A stretch of 64,000 nucleotides of DNA from Thermoproteota archaeon (GTDB taxonomy: Archaea > Korarchaeota > Korarchaeia > Korarchaeales > JAOZGB01), in contig JAVCBU010000011.1 of NCBI GenBank assembly GCA_037917685.1, forward strand, positions 32,001-96,000, given 5' to 3'. Below, one piece after another: positions 16-61,031 of the stretch (position 1 is its first letter; each line of letters begins with the position of its first letter). A program made the position numbers and the translations under genes. A model generated the notes under the pieces. The model made no database searches. It was not told where the DNA came from and saw only the letters and a list, made by a program, of their open reading frames with translations.

Positions 16-981
16 TCATCCCCGATTATTGGATGCCTTTCCAAGTAGGAAATATAGAATACTCCATGTAGCTATGTGATAAATACTTGGATGAAAGCTT
101 GGGAATGTTTCTATGTTATACACCCTAGCCCCCTCCCCAGCCTTCATCAAGGTTTGGAGCAGCTGCCATGTTGAGATTCCAAGAGGCTCGTCCAAACCCT
201 CTGACATAGACAGATCAAGAACGTCAAAGTCCACATTAACCATGAAGGTGTCAGTTCCATCTTTCACCCGCTCCAACGCCTCCTCTAAAACATTCTTATA
301 GCCCTTATTAACTATGTCCCTGTACGTGTATATCTTGGATCCATGCTTCCTGTACCATTCTATCTGGCTTTTCATGTTCCTCGGGCCTCTAAGCCCTATC
401 AGTATGAAATTCCTCATGTCCAGGTTCTTCAGCTCTGAAGCTCTCCTCACCCAGCATGCCAAGCTATATTTTGTACCGGAGTGCTCATGGAGATTATCGC
501 CGTGAGCGTCGAGATGTAGAACTCCTATCTTCCCCTGGGAAGAGAGTGATTCTGCAGCTGCAAATGGGTGTCCCGTAACTACAATAGGGGCGCAGCCGGC
601 TGAAAGTACCTTTTCGACTTTTTCCCTATTCTTTCTGATTGCATATAGGTAGTCATCATCTGATGAGACTGGTGATAATAACTTTATGTCTCCTAAATCT
701 CCGAGCCTCACTTTTTCCAGGACGTCGATGTCGTATTCTGGCAGATAGCTTCCATATTTCAGGGAGTGAACCCTTAGGTTGTGAGTATGAAGAATTGAAG
801 GCTTCAATGATCTTCCGGCAGGGGGAGTCGTCCTCTGCAAGGGTACACCTATTATTACTGCGTCGTACCCGTCTAAGTCCTCTTCTGAGATGCTTGGAAC
901 CCCCAGGAATGTTGGAGTTCCAGGGTGGATTGTGGGAACCTTGAAGACTGTGAACTCTTCCATTGACTTTCTAGGTTTCAA
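16..981 (-). CDS. Ureohydrolase (arginase/agmatinase family), divergent
   Basis: N-terminal 'TFLGVP', metal motifs LDAHGD and VDFDVLD, 'IGLRG'. The GGDH and HGT motifs are altered. Alternative ATG start at 963. Confidence 0.85.
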   Translation of the reverse strand: MKPRKSMEEFTVFKVPTIHPGTPTFLGVPSISEEDLDGYDAVIIGVPLQRTTPPAGRSLKPSILHTHNLRVHSLKYGSYLPEYDIDVLEKVRLGDLGDIKLLSPVSSDDDYLYAIRKNREKVEKVLSAGCAPIVVTGHPFAAAESLSSQGKIGVLHLDAHGDNLHEHSGTKYSLACWVRRASELKNLDMRNFILIGLRGPRNMKSQIEWYRKHGSKIYTYRDIVNKGYKNVLEEALERVKDGTDTFMVNVDFDVLDLSMSEGLDEPLGISTWQLLQTLMKAGEGARVYNIETFPSFHPSIYHIATWSILYFLLGKASNNRG

Positions 982-2664: not shown

Positions 2665-3516
2665 CTATTCACCCCTAACTATCTCGCTGAACACATCAAC
2701 TGCTTCATCCACTGTTAGCGGAAACTTATCTATGTTAATCCCACGTTTCTTAAGCAGATATGCTATCTGAGTTGCCTGAGGAGAATCTACACCTATCCTC
2801 TTGAGCAGCTCAACGTCTGAAAGTACTTCTCTGGTTGGGCCGCTCTCTATGATTCTCCCCCCATCCATAACAATAACCCTGTCCGAGAATACTGAGAGAA
2901 GCTCTGTTTTATGTTCAACCATAACTATCGTCTTACCCTCGGCTTTGAGTTTTCTAACAGTTTTGAAAACCTCCTCTGTTCCTATAGGATCCAGCTCTGA
3001 CGTTGGCTCGTCCAGTATCATTATCTCCGGCAGCATTGCAAGCGAAGCTGCTACGGCAACTTTTTGCTTTTGCCCCCCGGACATTAGGAAGGGGTGTCTG
3101 CTCCTGAACTCTTCAAGGCCTACAACTTTAAGTGCATAGTCTATTCTCCTCCTGATCTCATCCCTCGGCAAACCAAGGTTTTCCGGGCCGAATGCTATCT
3201 CCCTCTCCACATCGGGCATTAGCAGCTGTGACTCTGGATCCTGCATGGTCATCCCCACCTTCTGGGATATCTCTGAAACCTCGTGTTCCGTTGTTTTCAT
3301 GCCGGCAGTGATGACTTCCCCTGTAAAGTCTCCCCTAAGGATGTTTGGGACAATACCAACCATTGTTAAGCATAAAGTTGTCTTCCCGGCACCCGTGGGA
3401 CCTATAATACCGAGAAATTCCCCCCTGTAAACTGTTAGGTTTATGTTTAGCAGTGAGGGTTTCTCTGCTCTCCTATACTTGAACGTTACATTTCTAATTT
3501 CTATGGCTGGCTCCAT
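2665..3516 (-). CDS. ecfA1: ECF transporter ATPase
   Basis: Walker A GPTGAGKT, QDPESQ, MSGGQKQ, LDEPTSELD. Confidence 0.93.
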   Translation of the reverse strand: MEPAIEIRNVTFKYRRAEKPSLLNINLTVYRGEFLGIIGPTGAGKTTLCLTMVGIVPNILRGDFTGEVITAGMKTTEHEVSEISQKVGMTMQDPESQLLMPDVEREIAFGPENLGLPRDEIRRRIDYALKVVGLEEFRSRHPFLMSGGQKQKVAVAASLAMLPEIMILDEPTSELDPIGTEEVFKTVRKLKAEGKTIVMVEHKTELLSVFSDRVIVMDGGRIIESGPTREVLSDVELLKRIGVDSPQATQIAYLLKKRGINIDKFPLTVDEAVDVFSEIVRGE

Positions 3517-3715: not shown

Positions 3716-4234
3716 ATGGCAAAATTCACAACTCTAGATGTGGCACTCACAATCATAGGCGCCGTAATCTACGGGCTAGGGTGCTTCGCTACAATGGGGA
3801 TAGCAATATCATTTATGACGGTTAGGCCAGCATCATGCATAGCATGTGTATGGGGCATATTATTCGGCCCATGGGTCGGAGGACTCGCGGCCGGCATAGG
3901 GAACACGTTCATATCTGATGTCCTCGCCGGATGGCTAGGCGTCGGAGGAGTTGGAGGATTCGTTGGAAACTTCGTAATGGGCTGGATGCCAGGCCAGTTC
4001 GTGAAAGACCCTGAAGACATGGTTCAGGTCATATTCTGGTCAGGCCTCTCAGCTGTCGTCTGCGCTGTAATAGTCGCGGCATGGATATCATTCCTCGGAT
4101 ACGCCCCGTTCATGACGCTATTCATCCTTATCACCGCGAGTGACCTGACAGCCAACGTAATCGGCACGCCAATACTGATCAAACTGTTATATGAGAGGGT
4201 AAGGAGGAGAGGACTGTACTGGAGGGAACGCTAA
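3716..4234 (+). CDS. ECF transporter substrate-specific S component
   Basis: 172 aa, about 6 TM helices, 'GILFGPWVGGLAAGIGN..SD' typical of S components; divergent from ecfAAT. Confidence 0.8.
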   Translation: MAKFTTLDVALTIIGAVIYGLGCFATMGIAISFMTVRPASCIACVWGILFGPWVGGLAAGIGNTFISDVLAGWLGVGGVGGFVGNFVMGWMPGQFVKDPEDMVQVIFWSGLSAVVCAVIVAAWISFLGYAPFMTLFILITASDLTANVIGTPILIKLLYERVRRRGLYWRER

Positions 4235-4271: not shown

Positions 4272-5660
4272 TTACCCTAAACATCTATCCTCATCCCACC
4301 TGGCTATCCTGTCCCTATAGTTGAAGGGTATAAGCCTGGCTTTGCCTCTGGGCTGGAGTTCACCCCTTTCATAAATAATGCTTCCGGAGACGATCGTGTA
4401 TACAATCCTTCCTTTAAGGGTTAAACCCTCATAGGGCGTCCAGTCAGCCTTCTGGTGGAGCATGTCCAAGTCTAGCTTGTACTCGTCTTTTAGGTTGATA
4501 ATTGTTAGGTCAGCGTCTGCCCCTGGGATAATTGCCCCTTTCAACGGGTATAGGCGATATATTCTGGCAGCTCCAGTGGAGACAGCATCTACAAATCTTT
4601 TGAGGGTTAGTCTCCCCTTGAGGTATCCTTCACTTAACATTAGAGGGAGTCTGGTCTCAACGCCTGGCACTCCCGCCTCAACATTCCATATGTCGTCCCA
4701 GCACTTCTCTTTCTCCTCCCTTAGGGGTGCATAGTGGTCTGAGGTTACTATGTCTACTGTTCCATCCGCAAGAGCTTTCCACAGCATGGCCCTGTCTTCT
4801 TTTGTCCCAAGCGGTGGGTTTATCGCCAGGAAAGGCCCCATATCCTTAACGTCCTCCCGTGTGAATATAAGGTAGTGAGGGCATGTTTCAACAGTGACAC
4901 CCTTCTGTTTGGCTGCTACTATATCTGGCAGAACCCTGGCGGTTGAAAGGTGAAATATGTGCAGCCTCACGTTCATGTAGGTGGCAAGGAGTATAGCTCT
5001 TTTTACAGCTTCAACCTGAGCTATGTCAGGTCTTGCCTGCCAGTGAGCGTCGGGGTCTCTCCTTCCAGCATCAACCAGTAGTTTCTGGGCTTCTCTTCTG
5101 ATCCACTCGTCCTCAGCGTGGACCGTGGCTATTAGGTTCTTTCCTGAAAGCGTTAGGAAGGATTTGTACATGAAGCCTGTATCTACGTATGGTGTTCCGT
5201 CACAGTTTGCCATCATGTGTTTATAGGATAGGGCGCCCATCCTCGCAAGCTTTTCAACCTCCCCTATATCCCTATCTCTCCATAACACTGTGTGTAGGCA
5301 AAAGTCGCACCGGGCGAGCCTCAGGCCTACTTCTACTTTCCGCCTGAAGGCTTCAACTAGGCTTTCCCTCTCCCCTGCCCTTGCAAAGTCTGCTACTAGT
5401 GTTGTTCCTCCAGCTATGGCTGCAAGGCTTCCTGTTTTAAAGTCTCCCCTGCGGGCAACCCTGGGATGTATGTGTACGTGGCTGTCGAACCCGCCGGGTA
5501 TCACCAGAAGCCCCGTCGCGTCAATATTCTCTGCAGCCTCCCCTATCGCTGCGTTTCCGCCTATGGATACAATCTTACCGTCTTTGATGCCTATTGATGC
5601 CTTAACCACGGCACCCCCAGGGAGGTAGACGTTGCCATTTCTAACTGCGAGGTCGAACAT
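4272..5660 (-). CDS. Cyclic amidohydrolase (dihydropyrimidinase/hydantoinase/allantoinase family)
   Basis: PGGFDSHVH, AGGTT, carboxylatable Lys (SYKH), VHAED, HIFHLS, ETCPHYL, TSDH, GADAD. Confidence 0.9.
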   Translation of the reverse strand: MFDLAVRNGNVYLPGGAVVKASIGIKDGKIVSIGGNAAIGEAAENIDATGLLVIPGGFDSHVHIHPRVARRGDFKTGSLAAIAGGTTLVADFARAGERESLVEAFRRKVEVGLRLARCDFCLHTVLWRDRDIGEVEKLARMGALSYKHMMANCDGTPYVDTGFMYKSFLTLSGKNLIATVHAEDEWIRREAQKLLVDAGRRDPDAHWQARPDIAQVEAVKRAILLATYMNVRLHIFHLSTARVLPDIVAAKQKGVTVETCPHYLIFTREDVKDMGPFLAINPPLGTKEDRAMLWKALADGTVDIVTSDHYAPLREEKEKCWDDIWNVEAGVPGVETRLPLMLSEGYLKGRLTLKRFVDAVSTGAARIYRLYPLKGAIIPGADADLTIINLKDEYKLDLDMLHQKADWTPYEGLTLKGRIVYTIVSGSIIYERGELQPRGKARLIPFNYRDRIARWDEDRCLG

Positions 5661-5666
5661 AAAGCA

Positions 5667-7583
5667 TCAACCTGGAAGTTTCCCTAGGCTTTCAAGCTCA
5701 TCTGCCACGGCTTTAAGACCTAGCTGCTCGAACTTTTCCCTGGTAACCATTCCCGTCTTGGGATCCCATCCTCTAAGCTTGTAATACTCGTCCAGCATTT
5801 GGTCGAGCTCGACAACCTGACCTTTGGCTGGCCCCTCTGGTGATGGTACCTTGGTGAATCTCTCAGGGAGTCTGTCATCCTTCCTGGCCAGTCCAAGCCT
5901 CTGATTATACGCTCTCTCAAGATTGTAGATTCTCTCACCTGCAAGCCTTATGTCTTCAGCTGACACCTGGATGCCCACGGCGAGGCTGAAGCCCATTGCT
6001 ATTTCAGGGTAGTAGACCGCCCCGCTTTCAAGTGGAAGTAGGGTTCCGGTACTCTTGCACAGCAGCAGGCTATCGCATAGGGCGGCCAGTTCTTCGCAGT
6101 CTTTTACAAGGAAGGGTTTATACTTTGGGTTTAGCCTCTCTCCAAGCTCTGGCAGATACTTCCTCCCATATCTGACGATGATCTTGCTTTCCCATATACT
6201 CTCGTCTAGAATTGGAAAGGCCTTTAGGTGGTCGGCGCCCCTGGTGGCGGTGACATGGGCCAGCCCCATGGATTTCTGGGCCCTGCCGTCCTGTGCTGGA
6301 ATTTCCATCCCCTTAACCGCCATTACATATTTATCTGAGCCTCTTCCGATCTTCTTTGACGCCCTGTGGCTTCCCTCCGCAAGTAGGTTGCCGAATCCCT
6401 TTCTGTAGGCTATCATCTCTATGAGTTTGATCATTGTGTCGTAGTCTCCCCAGTAAAGCTCTAGGCCACCAGTATCCTCCCTTGTTATTATTCCCTTCTC
6501 GTAGCATTCCATAGCCCATGCTATCGTCCCACCGGTCGAGATGGTGTCCATTCCATACTCGTTGCATAGGTAATTCATGTATATTATTGCCTCGAGATCT
6601 CCCACATAACATCTTGGCCCGAGGCTTGAGATTGTCTCATATTCAGGGTTCTTATATATTCCTTTAAACTGGCCCTTTCTTATGAGAACAGGCTTCTCGC
6701 ACAGGCACAGACAGGCGTAGCATCCTCTATCCTTAATCCGATACTCAGATCTAAGCCTTTCCCCACCAATTCTCTCAACATCTGGGAACATTCCACGCTG
6801 GAAGTTCTTGACAGGCCATCTTGCAATCTCATTCATGAGTTCTGCAAGTATTGGGGTCCCATACTTTCGACGCCTCATAATGTGCGGGTCTCTTAAGTAC
6901 TCCTCTGAAAGCTTATCCACCAGCTCCTGGAACTTGTCTGGGTAGGCGACTCTCACATCCTTTGAACCTCTGACAACTATTCCCTTAACCCTCTTAGATC
7001 CGAGGACAGCTCCTATCCCCGCTCTAGCTGCGACCCTAGTGTCATGGAATATTCCGGAATATCTTACAAGGTTCTCGCCAGCCGGGCCTATAACGGCGGC
7101 CTGGCAGGACCAGTCTCCAACCTCCTCCTTTAGGGCTTTTTCAGCCTCGGATGTCTTGAGACCCCATAACCCGTTAGCGTCTCTAATCTCAACATTATCT
7201 TCATCTATGTAGATGTAGACTGGTTTTGAGGATCTACCACTGATAATTATCATGTCATACCCTGCAAGTTTAAGCTCCGGCCCTAGGAACCCGCAGCAAG
7301 AGGAGTCTCCATATACACCAGTAAGAGGCGACCTAGCCCCAACTTGGAACCTCCCGGACTGGGGCCAAGATGTGCCTGTGAATGGCCCCACTGCCAGAAT
7401 GAAGCGGTTTTCAGGGCTGAAAGGCTTAGTATCCGGGCTTGTCTCATCCCATAGGGTTTTAGCTATGAAGCCTGCTCCCCCTATGAATTTAAGAGCAGTC
7501 TCACCTGGCAAAGGCTGGGTGAAAGTTTTCATTCTGTCAAGATCGACCCTTAGGATTCTACCTGCATACGCGTAAAATTTCAT
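5667..7583 (-). CDS. aor: Aldehyde:ferredoxin oxidoreductase family (tungstopterin) enzyme, copy 1
   Basis: RSPLTG, IGPAGENLV, AARAGIGAVLGSK, CYACLCLC, PEYET, GMDTIS, RGADHL, DDRLP, MLDEYYKLRGW. Confidence 0.93.
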   Translation of the reverse strand: MKFYAYAGRILRVDLDRMKTFTQPLPGETALKFIGGAGFIAKTLWDETSPDTKPFSPENRFILAVGPFTGTSWPQSGRFQVGARSPLTGVYGDSSCCGFLGPELKLAGYDMIIISGRSSKPVYIYIDEDNVEIRDANGLWGLKTSEAEKALKEEVGDWSCQAAVIGPAGENLVRYSGIFHDTRVAARAGIGAVLGSKRVKGIVVRGSKDVRVAYPDKFQELVDKLSEEYLRDPHIMRRRKYGTPILAELMNEIARWPVKNFQRGMFPDVERIGGERLRSEYRIKDRGCYACLCLCEKPVLIRKGQFKGIYKNPEYETISSLGPRCYVGDLEAIIYMNYLCNEYGMDTISTGGTIAWAMECYEKGIITREDTGGLELYWGDYDTMIKLIEMIAYRKGFGNLLAEGSHRASKKIGRGSDKYVMAVKGMEIPAQDGRAQKSMGLAHVTATRGADHLKAFPILDESIWESKIIVRYGRKYLPELGERLNPKYKPFLVKDCEELAALCDSLLLCKSTGTLLPLESGAVYYPEIAMGFSLAVGIQVSAEDIRLAGERIYNLERAYNQRLGLARKDDRLPERFTKVPSPEGPAKGQVVELDQMLDEYYKLRGWDPKTGMVTREKFEQLGLKAVADELESLGKLPG

Positions 7584-8029
7584 GGAGATTCACCTCTTAA
7601 CATTCTTGTAAGATACTCTATTTGCTTTCTTTGCGAAACCTGGCTTGGCGTCACTATTTTTAAAGCCTGGTTTGGACATTTCTCAACGCACACTCCGCAG
7701 AGATCACAGATGTACGCGTAGCCATCCGGGTGTATGTCTATGGCTCCTATTATGCAGGCCTCGACACAAAGTCCACAGCCTATACATCTCTCCGCGATCA
7801 CCTTCACTATCTCGTCTTCTTCGATGGCGTTTACAGGGCATACCCTGGCGCATTGAGGGCTGTAGCAGTGGACGCATGCTATAGGTAGGTCTATTAGCTC
7901 CCTTGTCCTGACAACTCTGATCCTTGACTTCCTCGGGTTATAAACTTTCTCCTTCTCAAAGGAGCATACTATTTCGCAGATCCTACAGCCCGAGCATTGA
8001 AGCGGATCAGCATAAATAAACTTCTTCAT
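7580..8029 (-). CDS. Poly-[4Fe-4S] ferredoxin (AOR electron-transfer partner)
   Basis: Four Cys clusters: CSGCRICEIVC, CVHC..PQCARVCP, CIGCGLCVEAC, CDLCGVCVEKCP. Confidence 0.92.
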   Translation of the reverse strand: MKKFIYADPLQCSGCRICEIVCSFEKEKVYNPRKSRIRVVRTRELIDLPIACVHCYSPQCARVCPVNAIEEDEIVKVIAERCIGCGLCVEACIIGAIDIHPDGYAYICDLCGVCVEKCPNQALKIVTPSQVSQRKQIEYLTRMLRGESP

Positions 8030-8033
8030 AATA

Positions 8034-9125
8034 CTACACCTCCACGATCATTCTGATGGCATGTACGGGGCAAACTGAGCTGCAAAGTCCGCACCCCTCG
8101 CATCTTTCAACAATATTGGAGGCCCTGCCGTCAACCATTTCCATGGCTTGGTATGGGCAAACCTTGACACATAGCCCGCAACCCGTACACTTCTCCTGGA
8201 TCACACTTGACTTCCAGGAGCGGTAGTCAGGTTTGCCAGTAATATTTCTAGCTGCTGATCCCACAGCCTCTGAAACACTTGAATATCCTAGAGACTCCAA
8301 TTCCTGCTCGAATTCGTTTACTATACGGTCTAGCTTCTCTACGCCGTGGATCAGCGCTGCTGTAAGCACACCGAAAGCATCGGCCCCTGCCATAACCATC
8401 TCAACGGCATCTCTTCCGTTCGAAATCCCTCCTCCACCTATGATTGGATTCTTAAAGCTCCTGTATAATTCGCTTACAACCCTGAGGGCGATCGGCTTCA
8501 ACGCGGGCCCGCTTACATATCCATAACCGTACTTTGCCCCGAGCACCGGCCTCCTATTCTCTATATCAAGAAGCAGGCCAGGGCCTATAGTATTGATTCC
8601 GGATAGAACCTTACAACCTGCCTCAACAGCCGCCTTCACATGGGACATAGGGGTTAGCGGGCCCACCTTGACAGCCAATGGCACGCTGACTTTCTCAAGT
8701 GCTGCTTTGACCGTATGAGTAATCCATTTTTCACCTATGGTTGAGGGGATCGGAATCTCTATAAGGTCTGCACCCGCATCCTGAAGTATCCCGGCCATCC
8801 AGGCTGTCTTTTCAGGATCCATGTCTAGCACACTGACAAATACTGGCTTGTTGGACTCAGCCTTTAGCTGAGGAAGCTCACGGGAAATCATGTCTATTGA
8901 CGGGGCTGACCAATCATAGTTTATCAGGCCCCCGCTGAAATGGTACATGTTAGGCTTTGGTGTATCCATGGCTCTTGCTTTGACTGTTTTTATTGTTATC
9001 GCTCCGATCTTAAAGTTTAACAGTCTTTTAGCCGCCGTACAGTCTCTTGTGAGAGGTCCTGGAAAAACTACAAGGGGATATTCAAGGGTTAACCCCCTTT
9101 CTATGGTTACGGTCAGATCTACCAT
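8034..9125 (-). CDS. Dihydropyrimidine/dihydroorotate dehydrogenase-like (PreA-type) FMN protein with C-terminal 2x[4Fe-4S]
   Basis: ITIKT, VKVGP, SGINT, GYVSGPALKPIAL, IIGGGGI, MAGA, plus CTGCGLCVKVCP and CEGCGLCSSVCP. The usual ELNxSCP catalytic loop reads EIPIPS. Confidence 0.85.
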   Translation of the reverse strand: MVDLTVTIERGLTLEYPLVVFPGPLTRDCTAAKRLLNFKIGAITIKTVKARAMDTPKPNMYHFSGGLINYDWSAPSIDMISRELPQLKAESNKPVFVSVLDMDPEKTAWMAGILQDAGADLIEIPIPSTIGEKWITHTVKAALEKVSVPLAVKVGPLTPMSHVKAAVEAGCKVLSGINTIGPGLLLDIENRRPVLGAKYGYGYVSGPALKPIALRVVSELYRSFKNPIIGGGGISNGRDAVEMVMAGADAFGVLTAALIHGVEKLDRIVNEFEQELESLGYSSVSEAVGSAARNITGKPDYRSWKSSVIQEKCTGCGLCVKVCPYQAMEMVDGRASNIVERCEGCGLCSSVCPVHAIRMIVEV

Positions 9126-9128
9126 CTA

Positions 9129-10988
9129 CTATTCACCCTTAACCTTTATCTTGAGTTCTACAAGCTTTTCCTCTGGGACTATTCCGTCACTGGTCCATCC
9201 TCTAAGCTTGTAGTACTCGTCAAGCATGGGGTCAAGCTCTACAGTCTGGCCTTTAAGGCCACCCTCTGGTAGAGGCTCTTCTAGAAGCCTCCTTGGAAGC
9301 TGGTCGTCCTTCCTTGTAATCCCGTGGAGATTATTGTAGTGCCTCTCCAAGTTTATTATCCTCTCACCTATCCTCATAATCTTTTCAACAGTAAACTCTA
9401 CACCTGTTAGATGGCTTAGCGCCTCTGCCAGTAGCTCCGCTGATAATGTGTAGAAGGTAAAGAAGGTATACTTGCAGGCGATTACAGAGTCTAGTACAGC
9501 CCCAAGATCCTCGTGATACTTAACCATAGGCGCTTTTCCTCTTATTGAGAGGGGGTCAACTGAGTCAGGGCTTCCATAGAGTTTCTCCCCAAGCTCCGGG
9601 GGGAAGCCTATAAGTTCAAAGTTTACTAGGGCCCTTAGATGGTCTGCTCCTCTACTTGCAACTGCAAGCCCCAGGCCAAATCCCTTTGCCCCCCTAACCT
9701 CTACCGCCGGAAGCTCCATACCTTTAACATGCATAGCACATCTTGAGGCTTCCTCTCCAAACTTTCTTGAGGCTCTTGCACAGCCCTCAGCCAGCACGTT
9801 CCCGAATCCTTCACGCCTAGCTATCATCTTTATGAGTCTTATCATGACTTCGCTGTCACCCCACAGGATGTCTATACCCCCTGTATCCTCCCTTGTTATT
9901 ATTCCCTTCTCGTAGCACTCCATAGCCCACGCTATCGTCCCACCGGTCGAGATGGTGTCGAGGCCAAGGCGATTGCATAGCTCATTCATTTCTATTATTG
10001 AAGCGAGGTCTGAGTTCCAGCAGTTTGAACCGAGGCATACTAGGGTTTCATATTCTGGCCCTTCTCCCCCTACACATTTGGAGCCGCTCACAAACATGGC
10101 ATAGTTACTGCAGTGGATAAGGCATGCAAAGCATGCCCTATCCTTAACCTTGTACCTGGAGTCAAGCTCCTCAGCAGATAATAGCTCTCCCTCGGGGAAT
10201 ATTGAGGTCTGCCTATTCCCAGTTGAGATTCTGCCTGCCAGTAGCGCCCTGTCAACTATTGATGGGGTTCCATACCTGGAGAAATACTCGTAGCCTGGTG
10301 CCTCCATTATGAGCTCTGAGGCTTTGTCGCATACCTCCTCAAACTTTCGAATGTTGGCAGCTTCAACCATGCCTTCACCTGAGACTGCTACCGCCTTAAG
10401 CCTTTTAGACCCCATTACAGCTCCTACACCTGTTCTAGCAGCCAGCCGGTACTTCTCATTTACTATACCAGCATACCTCACCAGGTTTTCCCCTGCCGGC
10501 CCTATACATGCAACCCTAACGCCTGGGAGGGTGGACTCCTTTATTCTATCTTCGGTTTCCCATGTGTCTAGGCCCCACAGGTTAGAGGCGTCTCTTATCT
10601 CAGCCTCACCGTCAAATATCATTATGTACACAGGCTTTTCAGCTCTCCCCACTATGACGATGGCGTCAAAACCTGCATACTTCAGCTCTGGTCCAAAGTA
10701 ACCGCCTGAGTTGGCGTCTCCAAGTATACCTGTAAGGGGTGACTTTGCTGTTACGGAGTAGCGGCCTGATCCCGGGAACCTTGTCCCGACAAGCGGGCCT
10801 ACCGAGAATATTAGGTAGTTATCTGGCGAATATGGATCGACATCCGGGTTTGTGGTTTCGTATAGGATTCTTGATCCTATTCCCCTGCCTCCAAGGTAGA
10901 GTCTAAGGTTTTCCCGACTGGATTCCTGCAGTACAACTTTCCCCTTGGAGAGGTCTATAAATAGGGTTTTCCCAGTCCAGCCGTACAT
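9129..10988 (-). CDS. aor: Aldehyde:ferredoxin oxidoreductase family (tungstopterin) enzyme, copy 2
   Basis: MYGWTGK start, KSPLTG, IGPAGENLV, GAVMGSKRLKA, CFACLIHC, GPEYET, LGLDTIS, RGADHL. Confidence 0.93.
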   Translation of the reverse strand: MYGWTGKTLFIDLSKGKVVLQESSRENLRLYLGGRGIGSRILYETTNPDVDPYSPDNYLIFSVGPLVGTRFPGSGRYSVTAKSPLTGILGDANSGGYFGPELKYAGFDAIVIVGRAEKPVYIMIFDGEAEIRDASNLWGLDTWETEDRIKESTLPGVRVACIGPAGENLVRYAGIVNEKYRLAARTGVGAVMGSKRLKAVAVSGEGMVEAANIRKFEEVCDKASELIMEAPGYEYFSRYGTPSIVDRALLAGRISTGNRQTSIFPEGELLSAEELDSRYKVKDRACFACLIHCSNYAMFVSGSKCVGGEGPEYETLVCLGSNCWNSDLASIIEMNELCNRLGLDTISTGGTIAWAMECYEKGIITREDTGGIDILWGDSEVMIRLIKMIARREGFGNVLAEGCARASRKFGEEASRCAMHVKGMELPAVEVRGAKGFGLGLAVASRGADHLRALVNFELIGFPPELGEKLYGSPDSVDPLSIRGKAPMVKYHEDLGAVLDSVIACKYTFFTFYTLSAELLAEALSHLTGVEFTVEKIMRIGERIINLERHYNNLHGITRKDDQLPRRLLEEPLPEGGLKGQTVELDPMLDEYYKLRGWTSDGIVPEEKLVELKIKVKGE

Positions 10989-11441
10989 TTAAACACCCAG
11001 CTGGATATCTCCCGCTATCTCAATCATGGTGTTCCACAGCTTTGTTTTTCTATGATCCCAGCTGTCGGTAACTTTTAGTTTTTTAACAGGGCATTTTTCA
11101 ATGCACACCCCGCAAAGGTCGCACTTAAAGGCTTTCCCATTATAATAGGCTACTGCTCCGAACGGGCACGCCACTATGCAGAGCCCACAGCCAATGCACT
11201 TTTCCTGGCTTAGCTGTACGATGTTGTTCTCTCTGTACAGTGCGTCTGTCGGACATACGTCTATGCAGGGGGCTTTATTGCAGTTCTTACATGTAGTGAT
11301 GTAATCCCCCTCTTTGAGTCTTACAACCGTTATAGCTGAGGATGTAGGCTTATATACGCCGAGGTTCTCGGCAGTACACGCCAGCATACATATTTTGCAG
11401 CCTACACATTCTAGCGGGCTTATTGAAATGTAGACCGGCAT
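10989..11441 (-). CDS. Poly-[4Fe-4S] ferredoxin (AOR electron-transfer partner)
   Basis: Four Cys clusters. ATG at 11441 lies just after the upstream gene's stop; the ORF track starts it at 11450. Confidence 0.92.
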   Translation of the reverse strand: MPVYISISPLECVGCKICMLACTAENLGVYKPTSSAITVVRLKEGDYITTCKNCNKAPCIDVCPTDALYRENNIVQLSQEKCIGCGLCIVACPFGAVAYYNGKAFKCDLCGVCIEKCPVKKLKVTDSWDHRKTKLWNTMIEIAGDIQLGV

Positions 11442-11442
11442 T

Positions 11443-12846
11443 TCAACCACTCATCCAGGGTGGCTCCCAGGGCGGTGAGACTGGTGTTTCCTCAGCCTTC
11501 TCTCTGAACTTGTATGCGTTCTCCTCAATCTTCCTGTACGCCTCTTCCTCATCAACCTTTAATATTCTTCCTTTCTCAGAGACGAGTTCCCCGTCTATGA
11601 AAACGTACTCCACGTCGAATCCCCGGACATAATTTGCAACGAGGCTAAGCTTGTCCTCTACAGGCTGAAATCTGGGCTTATCTATGTCGATAACTATTAT
11701 ATCCGCCTTCTTGCCAGGCTCGATGCTTCCTATCTCATGGTCTAACCCCAAAGCCTTAGCTCCGTTTATCGTGGCCATCTCTAAAGCCTGCATTGGTGTT
11801 ATTAGGCTCCTGTCTAGATGGTGTACTCTCAACAGGTATGTTGATATCATCATAAACTCGAACATGTCTGACCAGCCGCCGTCTAGCCCGTAGGCAACAT
11901 TAACTCCTCTACGTAATAGTTCTACGACGGGTGCAATGCCGTGTCCGCCGCGCATGTTACTTTTTACGTTGAAGGCCACGTTTATCCCTGTCCTCTGTAT
12001 TGTGTTTAGCTCGTCCTCATATACGTAGATGCAGTGCGCAACTATCACGTCAGGCTTTAAGAAGCCGAGGCTGTGGAGGAAGTCTATAGATCCCTTCTTC
12101 CCATACCATTTCTTTATTAGGTTAACCTCGTATGGGCTTTGGGCCACGTGCAGTTGGATGCCTGCTTTGTACTCATCAGACAGCTCTCTAACTTTCCTGA
12201 AATACTCTGGTGAGCTTGAAAATGGAGCGTGAACCCCGAACATTCCTCTAATCCTTGAATCTGGCTTAGAATTCCACTTCCTGATAAACTCTAGGTTCGC
12301 TTCAAGCCCCTTATAGCCATGCTCCACCCCCAGCCTTTGGCTTGCCTCGAACGAGATTACAGCCCTAATCCCAACCTCCATCACCGCCTTCGCCTCCCAG
12401 TCCAGGGCTTCCGGAATATCGTTTGGAACCTCCATCAGATCCGAGGTTGTTGTAACACCAGCCCGAACCATGTCCATTGACATGGCTAGAGCTCCATAGT
12501 AGGCTTCTTCGCGTGTGGCTGTCTCCTCAAACCTTGGCCAGTAAACCCTTGTAAGTAGATCTCCGAACTTATCGACAGTAGCCATACCAGGTGGAGGATA
12601 GGTCACCCTCAGGTTTCTTAAATGATAAACCGGCATGTGATTATGCACGTTAACCATGCCCGGCATTATTATCTTGTTAGAAGCATCTATGTCAAGGTCA
12701 GCCTCACCATAAAGCTCAGAAGCCTTATCCGACTCCCCAACGAAAGTTATCCTTCCATCTTCAACGATTACCGTCCCGTCCTCGATTAGCCTTCTATTGG
12801 CGTCCATAGTAATTATAAAACCATGTCTTAGAGCTATATCAGCCAT
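11443..12846 (-). CDS. SsnA-like metal-dependent amidohydrolase (deaminase/aminohydrolase)
   Basis: MPGMVNVHNH, YYGAL, VGIRA..FE, GVHAPF, WYGK, AHC, N..SNM, GLDG..SDMFE. This motif string resembles E. coli SsnA as recalled; not verified by search. Confidence 0.85.
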   Translation of the reverse strand: MADIALRHGFIITMDANRRLIEDGTVIVEDGRITFVGESDKASELYGEADLDIDASNKIIMPGMVNVHNHMPVYHLRNLRVTYPPPGMATVDKFGDLLTRVYWPRFEETATREEAYYGALAMSMDMVRAGVTTTSDLMEVPNDIPEALDWEAKAVMEVGIRAVISFEASQRLGVEHGYKGLEANLEFIRKWNSKPDSRIRGMFGVHAPFSSSPEYFRKVRELSDEYKAGIQLHVAQSPYEVNLIKKWYGKKGSIDFLHSLGFLKPDVIVAHCIYVYEDELNTIQRTGINVAFNVKSNMRGGHGIAPVVELLRRGVNVAYGLDGGWSDMFEFMMISTYLLRVHHLDRSLITPMQALEMATINGAKALGLDHEIGSIEPGKKADIIVIDIDKPRFQPVEDKLSLVANYVRGFDVEYVFIDGELVSEKGRILKVDEEEAYRKIEENAYKFREKAEETPVSPPWEPPWMSG

Positions 12847-13414: not shown

Positions 13415-14170
13415 TTGTTAAGAGATTGGATGTGGATTCCCAGGTGGCTTGGTGAATGTTATTCGAAGCTTTACTTAAAGTTCGGTCAAGAACCCTTCAC
13501 CTTCTCCGAAGCTAGGGATTTCCTATCATTTAGTGAGAACAAGCTTTCCGTCGCATTCAGTAAGCTCCATTCTAAAAGAATTCTACTAGTTTTTAAACGG
13601 GGAAAACCTAGGCTTTATAGACTTTTAGATCCTGAAAACTTCATCTTTATGGCCTCAGGGGCCGTGAAAAACGTTGAGAGGGTTGCTTCTGAAAAATATC
13701 TTAAGCTTATACTTGATTGTCTGAGGGCTCTTTTAAAAACCATAGAGTTGGAGTCCTTCGCCGTTTACGGATCTGTGGCTCGTGGATCAGCATCCAACTA
13801 CAGCGATGTTGACATACTCATAGTCTCGGATTCGCTGAAGGGAAGCTTAGCCTCCAGAATAGATAAGTTATATCATTTGGAGGATGAACTTGAGGAGCTT
13901 AAATGGCTTAGGAAGCATGGGATATATACGTCACTCAGCTTCTACCCCTTAAGGAGGGATGAGGCTCAGAGACTGCCGCTGCTTTTCCTTGATTTAACGG
14001 AAGAGGCGGCAATTATTTACGATAGGAATGGATTCCTTGAGGCGGTGTTGTTGGAGTTTAGAGGTAGGCTGTTAAGGCAGGGAGCGAAACGGGTGATCCT
14101 AGATAGGAAGCATTGGTACTGGGACCTAAAGCCAGACTACAAGTTTGGTGAAAAGGTTGAGATTGCTTAA
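13415..14170 (+). CDS. Minimal nucleotidyltransferase (MNT) antitoxin with N-terminal winged-HTH-like domain
   Basis: YGSVARG..SDVDILIV MNT motif; N-terminal 'FTFSEA..LSVAFSKL..GKPRLYRL' looks like a wHTH; overlaps the HEPN gene. Confidence 0.85.
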   Translation: MLRDWMWIPRWLGECYSKLYLKFGQEPFTFSEARDFLSFSENKLSVAFSKLHSKRILLVFKRGKPRLYRLLDPENFIFMASGAVKNVERVASEKYLKLILDCLRALLKTIELESFAVYGSVARGSASNYSDVDILIVSDSLKGSLASRIDKLYHLEDELEELKWLRKHGIYTSLSFYPLRRDEAQRLPLLFLDLTEEAAIIYDRNGFLEAVLLEFRGRLLRQGAKRVILDRKHWYWDLKPDYKFGEKVEIA

Positions 14171-14585
14171 AATCGCTAAGTCATACCTCCGACAGGCCGA
14201 AGCTAGGATTGAAGATGCCAAAGACGCCCTTCTGGAAAGCAATCACCCTTACGCGGTAAGGCTAAGTCAAGAATGTGTTGAACTGTCCCTAAAGGCTGTT
14301 CTAAAAGCTGTCGGAATAGAATATCCTAAAGTACACGACGTTTCAGATGTCCTAGATGCGGTTAAGGACAGGTTTCCCCAATGGTTTAGAGCTGAAATAG
14401 GGTTTTTACGTGAATCAAGTAAAGCTCTTGCTAAAAAGAGGGAAATAAGTTTTTACGGAGGGGAGGAGGCTTTCCTATCCCCAGACGAGGTTATAAGCAA
14501 GGAGGATGCGATAGACGCTGTACAAAGGGCTACAAAAACACTCAAGTTATGCAAGAAGCTTATCAAAGAAATCAAGAGGATATAG
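14145..14585 (+). CDS. HEPN domain protein (MNT-HEPN toxin-antitoxin partner)
   Basis: SQECVELSLKAVL, YPKVHDV, REISFYG; adjacent to MNT. Start uncertain. Confidence 0.88.
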   Translation: MVKRLRLLKIAKSYLRQAEARIEDAKDALLESNHPYAVRLSQECVELSLKAVLKAVGIEYPKVHDVSDVLDAVKDRFPQWFRAEIGFLRESSKALAKKREISFYGGEEAFLSPDEVISKEDAIDAVQRATKTLKLCKKLIKEIKRI

Positions 14586-24013: not shown

Positions 24014-24090
24014 TTAGACTTTAGGTTTGGATTCTAATATAATCGTCTCGGATGCAACTCTAAATTTAAGCATACCCTCGAAATAATTCG

Positions 24091-31490: not shown

Positions 31491-31495
31491 TAGGA

Positions 31496-32794: not shown

Positions 32795-32957
32795 AGGATT
32801 CAAAATAAGTTAGACATGTACGCTTAAGAAGGGATTCTAGACTTGAGTCGGTCCCTTATATGTGAACTCTGCATTGTCTTCTACTAAATTGTTACTCCGA
32901 TTTGAGCTGGAGTCTATGTGAATTATGATAAATATGTTAGTGGTTGCTCCTGGTAAA

Positions 32958-33086
32958 TTGGCTGTGAGTACGAAGGATATTCTGGAGAAAAGGCTAAAAG
33001 AGCTTCAGAGAATGGTTCCAGAGATAGAGGGTGCAGCTGTTGTCAGCAGCGACGGCCTTACCAACCCTACCAATCATAAATGTTAG
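32958..33086 (+). pseudogene. Truncated Roadblock/LC7 (MglB-like) gene fragment
   Basis: Not in the ORF track. Translates MAVSTKDILEKRLKELQRMVPEIEGAAVVSSDGL then degenerates to TAG; 'PEIEGAAVVSSDGL' is typical of a roadblock N-terminus. Confidence 0.6.
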
Positions 33087-33116
33087 CGTTTTTAACTACT
33101 CCCGATTAAGGTTTAA

Positions 33117-44002: not shown

Positions 44003-44041
44003 AGCTATTCTTCACCGTTGAAAACTATTAAACTCATAAGT

Positions 44042-45475: not shown

Positions 45476-45507
45476 TTTTAAACCTTAATGCTACAGTAGA
45501 GATTTGA

Positions 45508-60969: not shown

Positions 60970-61031
60970 GGACGCAGCCCCTAATACTGGAACCCGATAT
61001 ATTTATATTAGCCTTTTGGATTCTACTCACA

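Follow-up and report, generated by a model that had tools for sequence, protein, structure and literature searches.

An archaeal operon combines relatives of the bacterial reductive urate module with two polyferredoxin-AOR pairs

Gene content of the locus

The window analysed here is a 64,000-nt stretch of an archaeal genome (G000, the source genome), and coordinates are window positions unless a contig is named. At 4272-12846 the ORF listing contains seven tightly packed minus-strand ORFs. ORF calls and Pfam matches confirm the same-strand operon proposed in a first-pass annotation of the sequence, in the order AH1, Fd1, AOR1, PRE, Fd2, AOR2 and AH2. The successive junctions are an 8-nt overlap, 0 nt, gaps of 3 nt and 4 nt, a 4-nt overlap and a gap of 6 nt, and this near-abutting or overlapping arrangement is compatible with a single transcript. 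The conserved unit extends past the seven genes to an arginase-family gene shared with two related loci, L117 and L118, and to an ECF transporter shared with L117:

11443-12846, minus strand: AH1, amidohydrolase of an SsnA sister subfamily, proposed ring-opening hydrolase (467 aa)
10989-11450, minus strand: Fd1, 4x[4Fe-4S] polyferredoxin of the AorA/WOR5-small-subunit type (153 aa)
9129-10988, minus strand: AOR1, AOR-family pterin enzyme (619 aa)
8034-9125, minus strand: PRE, FMN protein of the DHOD/DPD fold, ending in a 2x[4Fe-4S] domain and lacking an FAD/NAD domain (363 aa)
7580-8029, minus strand: Fd2, 4x[4Fe-4S] polyferredoxin (149 aa)
5667-7583, minus strand: AOR2, AOR-family pterin enzyme (638 aa)
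4272-5660, minus strand: AH2, hydantoinase/dihydropyrimidinase-type cyclic amidohydrolase (462 aa)
3716-4234, plus strand: ECF transporter S component, with weak matches to PF07155 and PF12822
2665-3516, 1838-2662 and 994-1833, minus strand: ECF transporter A, A' and T components (ABC_tran twice, and CbiQ)
16-981, minus strand: arginase-family (ureohydrolase) protein (PF00491, 1.4e-34)

The two amidohydrolases

AH1 is an Amidohydro_1 protein (Pfam, 2.6e-58) that had been annotated as SsnA-like. Its kinship with SsnA holds: in the tree it falls within a clade (SH-aLRT 99) that contains true SsnA, while E. coli GuaD and three other paralogues from the source genome lie outside. (All trees come from quick searches and carry SH-aLRT support only.) Identity with SsnA does not hold by NCBIfam: AH1 scores 268.3 and 252.6 bits on NF005540 and TIGR03314 and fails their cut-offs of 444 and 455.5; a true SsnA encoded elsewhere in the source genome reaches 544.5 bits against 444. 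The alignment shows H68, H70, H233 and D322 intact. However, the glutamate of the HxxE motif is replaced by Gln236, and likewise in the 48%-identical L118 orthologue.

AH2, also an Amidohydro_1 protein (4.3e-18), has hydantoinases as its best PDB matches and D-hydantoinase, allantoinase and dihydroorotase as its best NCBIfam models; on TIGR02033 (dihydropyrimidinase/D-hydantoinase) it scores 305 bits, under the cut-off of 393. The binuclear-metal ligands H61, H63, K148, H181, H237 and D308 are all present in the alignment. In the tree AH2 clusters with type-B HYDs and the HyuA clade, with SH-aLRT values of only 82 and 91.

A flavoprotein of probable UacX kinship

PRE carries a DHO_dh domain (PF01180, 3.7e-28) followed by a C-terminal Fer4 domain with eight cysteines, corresponding to 2x[4Fe-4S]. 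Pfam searches detected no Pyr_redox domain in PRE and no Pyr_redox protein in the operon. PRE misses every NCBIfam cut-off, the PreA and PyrD models giving 140-145 bits against cut-offs of 269-335. It falls in a 90-row clade of UacX-type reductases to which neither E. coli PreA nor PyrD belongs. The SH-aLRT of this clade is only 80, and the long PRE branch (length 2.64) is basal within it.

The cysteine of the N-x-S-C-P loop is catalytic in PreA/PydA and PyrD. In our alignment PRE lacks this DPD-type loop, which E. coli PreA, the PyrD of a relative and archaeal PreA-like proteins all have. The earlier description of PRE as a PreA-like reductase does not hold at the catalytic loop. A second loop signature, 'S-x-H-Y-x-G' (HY), which we derived in this analysis and which has no literature source, is common to bacterial XDH-context and archaeal type-A reductases. 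It is missing from PRE, which has 'EIPIPS' at the site; all other sampled UacX-type sequences in the alignment have HY. The same 'EIPIPS' occurs in P0002, 86% identical to PRE, and P0003-P0005 (38-40% identity to PRE) share the loop type, likewise lacking HY.

AORs and their polyferredoxins

Both AORs, members of the tungstopterin aldehyde:ferredoxin oxidoreductase family, lie far above the Pfam cut-offs for AFOR_N and AFOR_C (3e-81 and 6.1e-133 for AOR1; 9.4e-135 on AFOR_C for AOR2). BamB, an AOR-family benzoyl-CoA reductase with a ferredoxin-like partner, acts on an aromatic ring and is, to our knowledge, the sole precedent for ring chemistry in this family. The first-pass annotation had named it as a ring-reducing member of the family. 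AOR1 scores 511.7 bits against its best PDB match, 1aor, and 209 against BamB (4z3w); the corresponding values for AOR2 are 455.8 and 238. Both proteins thus resemble most closely the AOR of P. furiosus, an ordinary aldehyde oxidiser, and are distant from BamB. Glu313, His448 and the cluster cysteines are functional residues of the P. furiosus enzyme, and AOR1 and AOR2 keep the equivalents of all of these, including the [4Fe-4S] ligands (numbering is read off the alignment). In this they differ again from BamB, since they retain the AOR-type Glu/His pair. The Glu313 and His448 equivalents and three of the four cluster cysteines are kept in 67/67 AORs examined. The sequences of the window AORs give no sign of new chemistry and show no feature that would distinguish W from Mo use or name a substrate, and we know of no AOR-family enzyme that acts on purines.

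The AORs found in such clusters form three clades kept across phyla, each with an SH-aLRT of 92-100, within one larger clade (97). AOR1 groups with a Bathyarchaeia AOR and with the source-genome AOR at C1:163k, whose own locus is AorABC-like (97). AOR2 lies within a 56-row clade of cluster-linked AORs (97). Orthologues of the clade gamma AOR (at least 63% identity) are confined to genera that carry PRE.

Fd1 and Fd2 match Fer4 families and each contain 16 cysteines in four cluster motifs. In the PDB, Fd2 is matched best by 9mqx_E, 6x6u_B and 8c0z_C, which serve AOR-family enzymes as Fe-S partner subunits. An AOR subunit beside a four-cluster polyferredoxin is also the arrangement of AorABC from Aromatoleum aromaticum and of P. 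furiosus WOR5 (8c0z, 6x6u/6x1o, 9mqx). As described, AorABC includes an FAD/NAD-binding subunit, AorC; in the operon a DHOD-fold FMN protein stands in its place, and, unlike in AorABC or WOR5, the Fd-AOR pairs lie among ring-opening amidohydrolases. A parallel exists within the source genome, where C1:160-166k has the order Fd-Fd-AOR-Pyr_redox_2: PRE, in the Fd-AOR-PRE series of the operon, occupies the place of the AorC-like Pyr_redox_2 protein of that locus. The second source-genome cluster and the Thorarchaeota and Bathyarchaeia clusters also include a MoaD/ThiS-like gene.

Conservation of the gene set

Conserved synteny in archaeal genomes, proposed earlier as a check, was found. L117, a metagenome contig, has the same gene order at 83-98% amino acid identity. 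The dN/dS between it and the window is 0.02-0.10 in all 11 genes compared (0.04 for Fd1, which is 91% identical, and 0.085 for PRE), demonstrating that the gene set is under purifying selection. L118 has the same gene content at 41-63% identity, the upper value being that of its AOR with AOR2. Neither locus contains an XDH-family gene. Given this recurrence, together with related modules in sister genera and other archaeal phyla, the gene arrangement exceeds chance.

The arginase-family gene belongs to the conserved set. It is 86% identical in L117, and in L118 it lies between the AH2-type and Fd-AOR genes at 44% identity by alignment (41% by tblastn). Its product scores under the agmatinase and HutG cut-offs and has intact DAHGD and DFDVLD motifs. 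The ECF S component, whose Atlas clusters are those of a generic ECF S-component, occupies the same position in L117 at 97% identity, and the A, A' and T genes are conserved there as well. Two related PRE loci, L018 and L025, adjoin ECF A/T genes.

Other neighbours recur in relatives. PnrA/Bmp ABC transporters adjoin L019 and L118, the latter's being of the PnrA type; an adenine deaminase gene lies inside the Bathyarchaeia locus; L034 carries a PALP (YgeX-family) gene; and carbamoyltransferase and carbamate kinase genes lie beside orthologous sets.

Complementary distribution of AOR and XDH-family genes

We examined 92 loci with a PRE homologue for AOR and XDH-family genes within 10 kb. AOR alone was found at 34, XDH-family genes alone at 31, neither at 27 and both at none. 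In bacteria, the loci that the PRE alignment retrieved contain PRE, SSN, HYD, XDH, YgeX and M20 genes; in Thorarchaeota, Bathyarchaeia, Nitrososphaeria-labelled MAGs and the host order, there are loci with PRE, SSN and HYD, two or three Fd-AOR pairs and no XDH. This mutual exclusion agrees with one of the two AOR roles suggested in the first-pass annotation, action on the ring in place of XDH; the canonical aldehyde-oxidiser residues of both AORs speak against it. The split follows taxonomy and needs only about three state changes on the PRE tree.

The complementarity extends in part to whole genomes. A full XDH-family gene is missing in 8/14 genomes with AOR-type loci. Outside the host order, four of the five such genomes lack PF02738 and the fifth has only a 34-bit fragment; inside it, PF02738 was not found in three of nine, a total that counts the source genome. 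Where the PRE locus of a Desulfurococcales/Hadarchaeales genome is without an AOR, the XDH family is present in the genome (5/5). The source genome and all five genomes of genus g4 combine AOR-type loci with XDH-family genes. The window itself contains two XDH-type operons, the XDH-family gene nearest to PRE being 24 kb away.

Comparison with characterized systems

Among known systems, the reductive urate (2,8-dioxopurine) pathway of bacteria comes nearest. A link to it had been proposed from the sequence alone, and the tree positions of PRE, AH1 and AH2 support it. In the available parts of the published account, XdhD converts urate to 2,8-dioxopurine, YgfK or UacX dearomatises the product, SsnA and HyuA open the rings, and no step forms an aldehyde; UacX is a PF01180 protein without an FAD/NAD domain, with reduced Fd as its proposed donor (bioRxiv 10.1101/2025.05.19.654654). 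The E. coli cluster described there comprises XdhD-YgfM, YgfK, SsnA, HyuA, YgeW/YqeA, YgeY and YgeX, and the C. difficile variant has UacX and UacY (bioRxiv 10.1101/2025.05.19.654654; 10.1101/2025.04.24.650524). We found no mention of archaea or tungsten in the portions of these two preprints that were accessible.

The operon resembles these clusters in its DHOD-fold FMN/Fe-S reductase, which lacks an FAD/NAD domain as UacX does, in joining an SsnA-clade amidohydrolase to a HyuA-like cyclic amidohydrolase, and in the purine-type transporter, adenine deaminase, carbamoyltransferase and carbamate kinase genes that adjoin orthologous sets in relatives. It differs in its archaeal host, in having two polyferredoxin-AOR pairs and no XDH-family enzyme, and in the failure of AH1, AH2 and PRE to reach family cut-offs or show signature motifs. 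Also unlike the bacterial clusters, it has an arginase-family gene and none of YgeX, YgeY, YgeW/YqeA or UacY; carbamate kinase and OTC-family genes are present elsewhere in the source genome.

PRE can also be compared with PydAc of Clostridium chromiireducens, described in the text available as a ferredoxin-dependent dihydropyrimidine dehydrogenase that has FMN and Fdx domains, lacks FAD/NADPH domains and takes electrons from low-potential donors; in one variant an extra Fdx domain is a separate adjacent ORF (PMC7332683). PRE has the same combination of FMN and Fe-S domains without FAD/NADPH domains. It differs in its neighbours, which are SsnA-like and not Pyd genes, and, in the alignment with E. 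coli PreA, a PyrD and archaeal PreA-like proteins, it is without the Cys loop that marks uracil/dihydroorotate-type enzymes.

Our literature searches found no published description of this operon architecture, which the first-pass annotation had also failed to recognise from any described pathway. The bacterial XDH-type urate pathway is known; the part for which no description was found is the union, in archaea, of divergent relatives of its three core enzymes with two AORs and their Fe-S partners.

A possible function and its alternatives

Purine-type heterocycle catabolism coupled to the AORs is, in our judgement, the likely business of this locus. A more specific explanation, the best we can offer but a tentative one, is that the operon and the downstream arginase-family gene, probably with the ECF transporter as well, form a divergent archaeal paralogue of the bacterial reductive purine-ring degradation module. 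The module would share a single electron path with two polyferredoxin-AOR pairs of the AorA/AorB type. A purine-like heterocycle would be taken up, and AOR1 and AOR2 would perform the ring hydroxylation or dehydroxylation that XDH-family Mo enzymes (XdhD/DOPDH, XDH) carry out in bacteria. The AORs may exchange electrons through Fd1 and Fd2 with PRE, whose 2x[4Fe-4S]/FMN chain would dearomatise the ring. AH1 and then AH2 would open the two rings, and the arginase-family enzyme would remove a guanidino- or amidino-type end group. Substrate class, physical wiring and ring action of the putative tungsten site are all things we infer, and for the last of these, direct AOR chemistry on the ring, we would put the case at a little short of even.

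We prefer this explanation because of the known urate pathway and its lack of an aldehyde step, the AOR/XDH distribution with its XDH-less genomes, and the conserved AOR clades. The purine context (PnrA/Bmp transporters, adenine deaminase, PALP and a true SsnA in the source genome), the conservation of the window set, the AOR-partner matches of Fd2 and the AorC-like position of PRE point the same way. Against it stand the canonical AOR residues, the nearness to P. furiosus AOR, the taxonomic character of the AOR/XDH split, the co-occurrence of XDH-family genes in the source genome and genus g4, and the two XDH-type operons in the window. The sub-cut-off scores of AH1 and AH2, the glutamine in AH1 and the position of PRE, without HY on a long branch, mean that the substrate may not be a purine. 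A further difficulty is a possible aldehyde source in related type-B loci, which carry genes for a DeoC-family aldolase and a PfkB kinase; genes of these two kinds lie beside L018 and L022.

Those genes would suit a different scheme, aldehyde-driven ring reduction, which we consider possible though somewhat doubtful. Here the AORs would oxidise ordinary aldehydes (acetaldehyde, glycolaldehyde, glyceraldehyde from nucleoside sugar, or aldehydes derived from 2-oxoacids), and each AOR-polyferredoxin pair would feed low-potential electrons to PRE, replacing PreT, the YgfK FAD domain or AorC, before the amidohydrolases open the reduced ring. The canonical active sites with P. furiosus AOR as nearest relative, the AorA/WOR5 subunit type of both polyferredoxins, and the mirroring of C1:160-166k by Fd-AOR-PRE all fit. 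So do UacX and PydAc, which lack FAD/NAD domains and, in the available accounts, work with reduced viologen or ferredoxin (10.1101/2025.05.19.654654; PMC7332683), and the separate-ORF Fdx domain of one PydAc variant. However, the scheme leaves the absence of XDH-family genes from the loci and from most of the AOR-type genomes unexplained if 2,8-dioxopurine is still needed, as well as the retention of two or three AOR clades per cluster across phyla. It offers no reason why bacteria and Desulfurococcales manage without a dedicated donor, and no DeoC homologue was found in the source genome.

An aldehyde might instead arise after ring opening, for example if a diamino or beta-amino acid product were transaminated to a semialdehyde; the AORs would oxidise it and return the electrons to PRE, making the pathway redox-neutral. 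We think this unlikely. No YgeX homologue was found in the source genome at E<=1e-5, and its final steps must therefore depart from the E. coli ones. Window 30222-32794 encodes an M20 peptidase and a class-III aminotransferase, and M20 genes adjoin L018, L019 and L020. Yet 17 kb and unrelated genes separate the aminotransferase from the operon, it was not seen in L117 or L118, L034 carries its PALP gene, and the published pathway, in the parts available, is aldehyde-free (10.1101/2025.05.19.654654).

Pyrimidine catabolism is not favoured, and a reductive Pyd-type route, with PRE reducing uracil or thymine, AH2 a dihydropyrimidinase and AH1 a cytosine-type deaminase, seems to us quite improbable. 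The dihydropyrimidinase/D-hydantoinase model is the best NCBIfam model of AH2, Fd-dependent uracil reductases exist, judging from the accessible account of PydAc (PMC7332683), and the M20 and aminotransferase genes of the window could complete the route. Nevertheless, PRE lies apart from E. coli PreA and lacks the catalytic Cys loop, AH1 sits with SsnA rather than with deaminase paralogues and has lost the HxxE glutamate, the orthologous set of L118 stands beside a PnrA-type transporter, and an arginase-family member would have no role.

That PRE is a dihydroorotate dehydrogenase, AH2 a dihydroorotase and the AORs general aldehyde detoxifiers, all mere neighbours, is highly improbable: the source genome has no separate PyrD of about 300 aa, its two PRE genes being its only DHOD-fold matches, and a dihydroorotase model gives AH2 294 bits, but PyrD models fall far under cut-off on PRE, which has no catalytic Cys loop, the set is kept as a unit at 41-63% identity and also in several phyla, its junctions suit one transcript, and another cyclic amidohydrolase gene lies next to a carbamoyltransferase gene at C6:316k of the source genome.

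Gene content of the operon

Seven ORFs occupy positions 4272-12846, all on the minus strand, with junctions that span an 8-nt overlap to a 6-nt gap. The ORF listing and the domain matches agree with the gene identities and order given in the first-pass annotation.

Genes of the operon (first seven lines) and genes downstream of it, with window positions
11443-12846, minus: AH1, amidohydrolase, 467 aa, Amidohydro_1
10989-11450, minus: Fd1, polyferredoxin, 153 aa, 16 Cys, four [4Fe-4S] motifs
9129-10988, minus: AOR1, 619 aa, AFOR_N and AFOR_C
8034-9125, minus: PRE, DHOD/DPD-like Fe-S flavoprotein, 363 aa, DHO_dh and C-terminal eight-Cys ferredoxin domain
7580-8029, minus: Fd2, polyferredoxin, 149 aa, 16 Cys, four [4Fe-4S] motifs
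5667-7583, minus: AOR2, 638 aa, AFOR_N and AFOR_C
4272-5660, minus: AH2, cyclic amidohydrolase, 462 aa
3716-4234, plus: ECF S component, convergent with the operon
2665-3516: ECF A
1838-2662: ECF A'
994-1833: ECF T
16-981: arginase-family gene

A further AOR gene lies immediately beyond the window edge on the downstream side. For the specificity of the ECF S component, Atlas and NCBIfam gave generic S-component clusters only. Upstream of the operon are a nucleotidyltransferase/HEPN pair, a PadR regulator and an ABC-2 exporter. The pair (251 and 146 aa, overlapping, plus strand, 13415-14585) adjoins the operon's upstream region and looks like a toxin-antitoxin-type system.

None of the seven operon proteins passes a curated NCBIfam cut-off. 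For AH1, a chlorohydrolase model gives 309.8 bits (cut-off 609) and the SsnA models give 268.3 and 252.6 bits (444 and 455.5). AH2 reaches 305.1 of the 393.25 bits required for D-hydantoinase, 299.7 of 631 for allantoinase and 294 of 452 for dihydroorotase; for PRE, PyrD gives 145 of 269 and PreA 140.1 of 335.

The gene set is conserved and under selection

The protein collection contains a single close homologue of PRE (86% identity) and a few distant ones (38-40%) with the same unusual active-site loop. A metagenome scan with these homologues as queries gave three informative contigs, L117, L118 and L119. L117 has the order of the window (Fd1-AOR1-PRE-Fd2-AOR2-AH2, ECF S, ECF A/A'/T, arginase-family gene, AOR) at 83-98% identity, with AH1 expected past the point where the contig stops. 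Comparing the window with L117 gives dN/dS of 0.02-0.10 in all 11 genes, a substitution pattern indicating that these are working genes. The most diverged are PRE, AH2 and the arginase-family gene (83-86% amino acid identity, dN 0.07-0.10); dN is 0.014-0.049 for the AORs, ferredoxins and ECF genes, and the block is otherwise 91-98% identical.

L118 is far more distant, with the set at 41-63% identity. It encodes an SsnA-type paralogue, PRE, AH1-type (48%) and AH2-type (46%) genes, a polyferredoxin (53%), an AOR2-type AOR (63%) and an arginase-family gene (41% by tblastn, 44% by alignment), with a PnrA/Bmp-type ABC transporter before the set and a CDA-fold deaminase after it. L119 carries PRE-Fd-AOR. 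Synteny is therefore conserved: the order recurs in L117, the gene content in L118 and related modules in other archaeal genomes. Because the arginase-family gene is kept in both L117 and L118, we count it as part of the conserved unit. The seven genes of the 4272-12846 unit originally proposed stand, whereas its boundary does not, since the conserved unit reaches position 16.

Related loci carry the core of the reductive purine pathway

In the accessible parts of two 2025 preprints on bacteria (Li et al., bioRxiv 10.1101/2025.05.19.654654; Liu et al., bioRxiv 10.1101/2025.04.24.650524), XdhD/DOPDH takes the 6-oxo group off urate to give 2,8-dioxopurine, which is dearomatised by YgfK or, in C. 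difficile, by UacX, a PF01180 protein without the FAD domain whose proposed donor is reduced ferredoxin. SsnA then opens one ring and HyuA the other, and the route runs through YgeW/YqeA or UacY, then YgeY and YgeX, to pyruvate. The words archaea and tungsten are absent from these accessible parts.

A single-sequence scan of genome contigs with PRE returned a ferredoxin-domain match only, and an alignment-based scan was needed. With one genome per species, this gave 80 loci (taxon labels are record titles), which we screened by tblastn with the window proteins and the E. coli reference proteins of the ygeV-ygfT region. Bacterial loci (Bacillota, Fusobacteria, Acetomicrobium, Chloroflexota) combine PRE with SsnA, HyuA, XDH-type genes, YgeX and an M20 peptidase, and often add YgeW, carbamate kinase and a nucleobase permease; these loci are the 2,8-dioxopurine cluster. 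Loci of Desulfurococcales and Hadarchaeales have PRE with an SsnA-type gene, sometimes with hydantoinase-type, carbamoyltransferase, carbamate kinase and XDH-type genes. Those of Thorarchaeota, Bathyarchaeia and two Nitrososphaeria-labelled MAGs have PRE with SsnA-type, hydantoinase-type and ThiS-like genes and two or three Fd+AOR pairs. Thus the bacterial cluster and the AOR-type archaeal loci have the PRE, SsnA-type and hydantoinase-type core in common, but the bacteria accompany it with XDH-type genes and the archaea with Fd+AOR pairs.

Within the Thermoproteota order of the window genome (Korarchaeales), nine sister genomes yielded 12 PRE-homologue loci, 10 of them with AORs within 10 kb. 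Type A loci typically read Fd-AOR-PRE-Fd-AOR-HYD-AOR (HYD, hydantoinase-type), with a PnrA/Bmp ABC transporter and SsnA alongside. Type B loci (L018, L022) have PRE-AOR-Fd with SsnA-type and hydantoinase-type genes and a second AOR; both include a DeoC-family aldolase, L018 also ECF genes and an M20 peptidase, and L022 a PfkB kinase. ECF transporter genes also adjoin a related PRE in L025. The window genome, G000 (1.81 Mb, 95% complete; 13 AFOR_C matches, five on contig C7), encodes another PRE at C1:185k, where the genes run PRE-Fd-ThiS/MoaD-like-AOR-AOR. Other type-A parts are scattered in this genome: a true SsnA, a second hydantoinase-type gene adjoining an OTC-family gene, and carbamate kinase.

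Several neighbors fit a purine context. A PnrA/Bmp transporter adjoins L019, L118 and an AOR locus at C1:160k in G000; the Bathyarchaeia locus has an adenine deaminase between AOR and PRE; L034 has a PALP enzyme (YgeX family) between two SsnA-type genes; and carbamoyltransferase and carbamate kinase genes occur in Desulfurococcales loci and in L034/L036. Full-text searches, covering literature outside subscription journals and supplementary files, found neither a link between the AOR family and purine or pyrimidine catabolism nor an archaeal version of the pathway, in keeping with the initial remark that the architecture was not recognized from any described pathway. In PMC9246946, on a tungsten-dependent Caldarchaeales archaeon, the text contains no purine, pyrimidine, hydantoinase, dihydroorotate or amidohydrolase.

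Phylogenetic placement

Every tree comes from a quick IQ-TREE search, and branch support is SH-aLRT only; fragments were left out, as were L042 and L047, which duplicate L017 and L020. In the PRE tree (95 rows), the PreA-like archaeal proteins cluster with E. coli PreA, and a UacX-like clade (support 80) takes in the other 90 rows; it contains one subclade of bacterial proteins from XDH contexts (98) and one of archaeal proteins (96). The window PRE branches basally in this clade, close to the type-B proteins, and its branch is 2.64 substitutions per site long. With bacterial homologue loci carrying PRE, SsnA, HyuA, XDH and YgeX, this position favors the suggested link to the anaerobic urate/purine cluster.

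In the SsnA-type tree (59 rows), AH1 falls inside a 41-row clade (99) composed of true SsnA (100), including E. coli SsnA and the G000 C1:114k protein (544.5 bits, above the SsnA cut-off), together with its archaeal sister clade; outside it lie E. coli GuaD and another three paralogues from G000. AH2 groups with two type-B proteins (82) inside a clade (91) with HyuA (100) in the hydantoinase-type tree (42 rows). The first-pass labels thus need qualification. AH1 is SsnA-like by its clade but lies below the SsnA cut-offs, and AH2 likewise shares a clade with HyuA but falls short of the D-hydantoinase cut-off. "PreA-like" does not hold for PRE at the catalytic loop, which is without the PreA motif N-x-S-C-P; PRE also lies outside the E. 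coli PreA group and scores far below the PreA cut-off.

The AOR tree (67 rows, LG+G4) resolves the cluster AORs into three clades. Alpha, the gene before PRE, is found in Thorarchaeota, Nitrososphaeria-labelled MAGs and the order; beta, the gene after PRE-Fd, in Bathyarchaeia, Nitrososphaeria-labelled MAGs and the order, with no Thorarchaeota members; and gamma, the gene after HYD, in Thorarchaeota, Nitrososphaeria-labelled MAGs and the order. Within the order, gamma orthologues (at least 63% identity) occur only in genera g3, g4 and g6, those with a type-A PRE; the best match among 21 g2 genomes is 45%. A 56-row clade (97) unites these three with AOR2 and the type-B AORs. AOR1 branches just beyond it, with a Bathyarchaeia AOR and, as its sister, the AOR of the C1:160k locus, an AorABC-like locus encoding Bmp, Pyr_redox_2, AOR and two Fd. 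Placement against FOR, GAPOR, WOR4/5 and YdhV is by PDB bit scores only.

Active sites

PreA, PyrD and PreA-like proteins contain the loop N-x-S-C-P, whose Cys is the catalytic acid of the DHOD fold. In UacX-like proteins of bacteria and of type A the loop is shorter, S-x-H-Y-x-G, and in type B it reads T-C..L-Y. The window PRE has E-I-P-I-P-S, a loop without HY that is common to its homologues P0002-P0005, and keeps the FMN-site residues and all eight Cys. We reject pyrimidine biosynthesis by PyrD and PyrC on the loop motif, the cut-offs and the conserved context.

AH1 keeps H68, H70, H233 and D322, and Gln236 replaces the HxxE Glu of SsnA and deaminases; the L118 orthologue likewise has Gln there. 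AH2 keeps H61, H63, K148, H181, H237 and D308, and the arginase-family protein keeps its DAHGD and DFDVLD motifs. The arginase-family partner, the Gln of AH1 and the odd PRE loop together suggest that the window copy may have a substrate other than 2,8-dioxopurine. Speculatively, that substrate may be a ring whose opening yields a guanidino or amidino group.

Numbered by alignment to 1aor, the residues aligned with Glu313, His448, Cys291, Cys295 and Cys494 of P. furiosus AOR are present in 67/67 AORs. At the first [4Fe-4S] Cys (Cys288 in P. furiosus AOR), all 14 clade-gamma AORs (L014:12880-14799, which is G000 C1:188.9-190.8k, and 13 orthologues in L017-L100) have Asp, and the other 53 have Cys; the gamma proteins may have an Asp-ligated cluster with different redox behavior. 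Near the catalytic residues, cluster AORs have the motifs QDGR..S and RGADHL; a P. furiosus-like paralogue has YDPRG..G and RGGCH. AOR1 and AOR2 match P. furiosus AOR best (511.7 and 455.8 bits; BamB, 209 and 238), and we reject a BamB-like ring reductase on similarity scores and active-site residues. The best matches of Fd2 are Fe-S partner subunits of AOR-family enzymes. A PRE-polyferredoxin complex predicted from alignments scored 0.00, evidence neither for nor against.

AORs and XDH-type genes do not occur together within 10 kb of PRE

Among 92 PRE loci (two duplicates removed), 34 have an AOR within 10 kb, 31 an XDH-type gene, 27 neither and none both. The window counts as an AOR locus, its nearest XDH gene being 24 kb off. 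This split tracks taxonomy, and since three state changes on the PRE tree suffice to explain it, the counts are not strong statistics.

We also searched three sets of genomes for the XDH family (PF02738). For AOR-type loci outside the order (three Thorarchaeota, one Bathyarchaeia, one Thaumarchaeota-labelled), four of five genomes gave no match and the fifth a 34-bit fragment. Desulfurococcales and Hadarchaeales genomes whose PRE locus is without an AOR matched in 5/5. Within the order, none was found in G008, G023 and G036 (91, 93 and 75% complete), and G000 and five g4 genomes had two matches each. Overall, 8 of 14 genomes with AOR-type loci are without a full XDH-family gene.

In the window, positions 30222-36750 encode an M20 (ArgE/DapE-type) peptidase, a class-III aminotransferase and a three-subunit XDH-type set (large, FAD, 2Fe-2S). 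A second XDH-type large subunit (840 aa) begins at 60885, followed by an FAD subunit truncated by the window end (60885-64000). Both sets score under the XDH equivalog cut-offs.

Possible roles of the AORs

Three points are well supported: the operon is a genuine module, conserved and under selection; it is related to the UacX-SsnA-HyuA core known from reductive purine degradation; and it is a diverged paralogue of a broader archaeal variant, where this core comes with AorA/AorB-type pairs. The anaerobic uric acid/purine route has been known only since 2025 and in bacteria alone, where it depends on selenium/molybdenum XDH-family enzymes. Our genome comparisons show that archaea of at least three phyla have what is predicted to be the same ring-reducing and ring-opening core, coupled to tungsten-type AORs and polyferredoxins that appear to replace XDH, often in genomes without an XDH-family gene.

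Tentatively, we slightly prefer a ring role, in which the AORs would carry out hydroxylation or dehydroxylation in place of the missing XDH-family enzymes and exchange electrons with the flavoprotein via the polyferredoxins. We lean this way because the loci and many of the genomes are without XDH, because several specialized AOR clades are kept per cluster and because the published pathway, in its accessible parts, has no aldehyde. The main rival, itself a doubtful but serious contender, is that the AORs oxidize ordinary aldehydes, serving the flavoprotein as its electron-input module. In its favor, the AORs have canonical catalytic residues, UacX and PydAc rely on low-potential donors (PMC7332683), and aldolase and kinase genes lie near type-B loci; as for DeoC as the aldehyde source, G000 has no homologue.

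If the AORs act on the ring, the family gains a new substrate class, purine rings. If they are donors, aldehyde oxidation would be hard-wired to heterocycle reduction in a new AOR complex with a DHOD-fold third subunit. Either outcome bears on the roles of many unassigned archaeal AOR paralogues, on nucleobase recycling in anoxic sediments and hot springs and on these lineages' need for tungsten. Being few and soluble, the proteins lend themselves to direct tests.

A more elaborate form of the ring role is, taken as a whole, improbable. AOR-family tungsten enzymes would be a second, XDH-independent family of purine-ring hydroxylases/dehydroxylases in Thorarchaeota, Bathyarchaeia and the Thermoproteota order. 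Three clades, one with an Asp-ligated cluster, would perform the C-2/C-8 hydroxylations and the C-6 dehydroxylation to 2,8-dioxopurine, wired by polyferredoxins to a UacX-type flavoprotein in a closed redox machine whose oxidations pay for its reductions. The window copy, with two AORs, an HY-less flavoprotein, an arginase-family enzyme and an SsnA-like hydrolase in which Gln replaces Glu, would be retuned for a guanine- or pterin-like 2-amino ring, opened to give a guanidino group that is taken off as urea.

Other observations

G000 has no separate ~300-aa PyrD, its only DHOD-fold matches being the two PRE genes; sister genomes have PyrD. Either an assembly gap (95% completeness) or a different pyrimidine synthesis would account for this. 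The AorABC-like locus (L113:1149-6457, G000 C1:161-166.5k) consists of two polyferredoxins, an AOR, a Pyr_redox_2 FAD/NAD protein and a PnrA/Bmp binding protein. On C7, an Fd-AOR-Amidohydro_3 operon (L116:5806-9469, C7:5.8-9.5k) encodes a sister of AOR2; its amidohydrolase family, PF07969, is the one that Li et al. use for UacY in the accessible part of their text. In L118 (2-1982), an MtmB-family methyltransferase homologue and a corrinoid-binding protein adjoin the PnrA-type transporter. Elsewhere in the window, a GH3-family N-terminal domain protein lies beside a B12-binding radical SAM enzyme (22868-25464), and positions 42542-47091 encode an aconitase-X protein, a KaiC/GvpD-type ATPase and a 527-aa ORF without a Pfam match.
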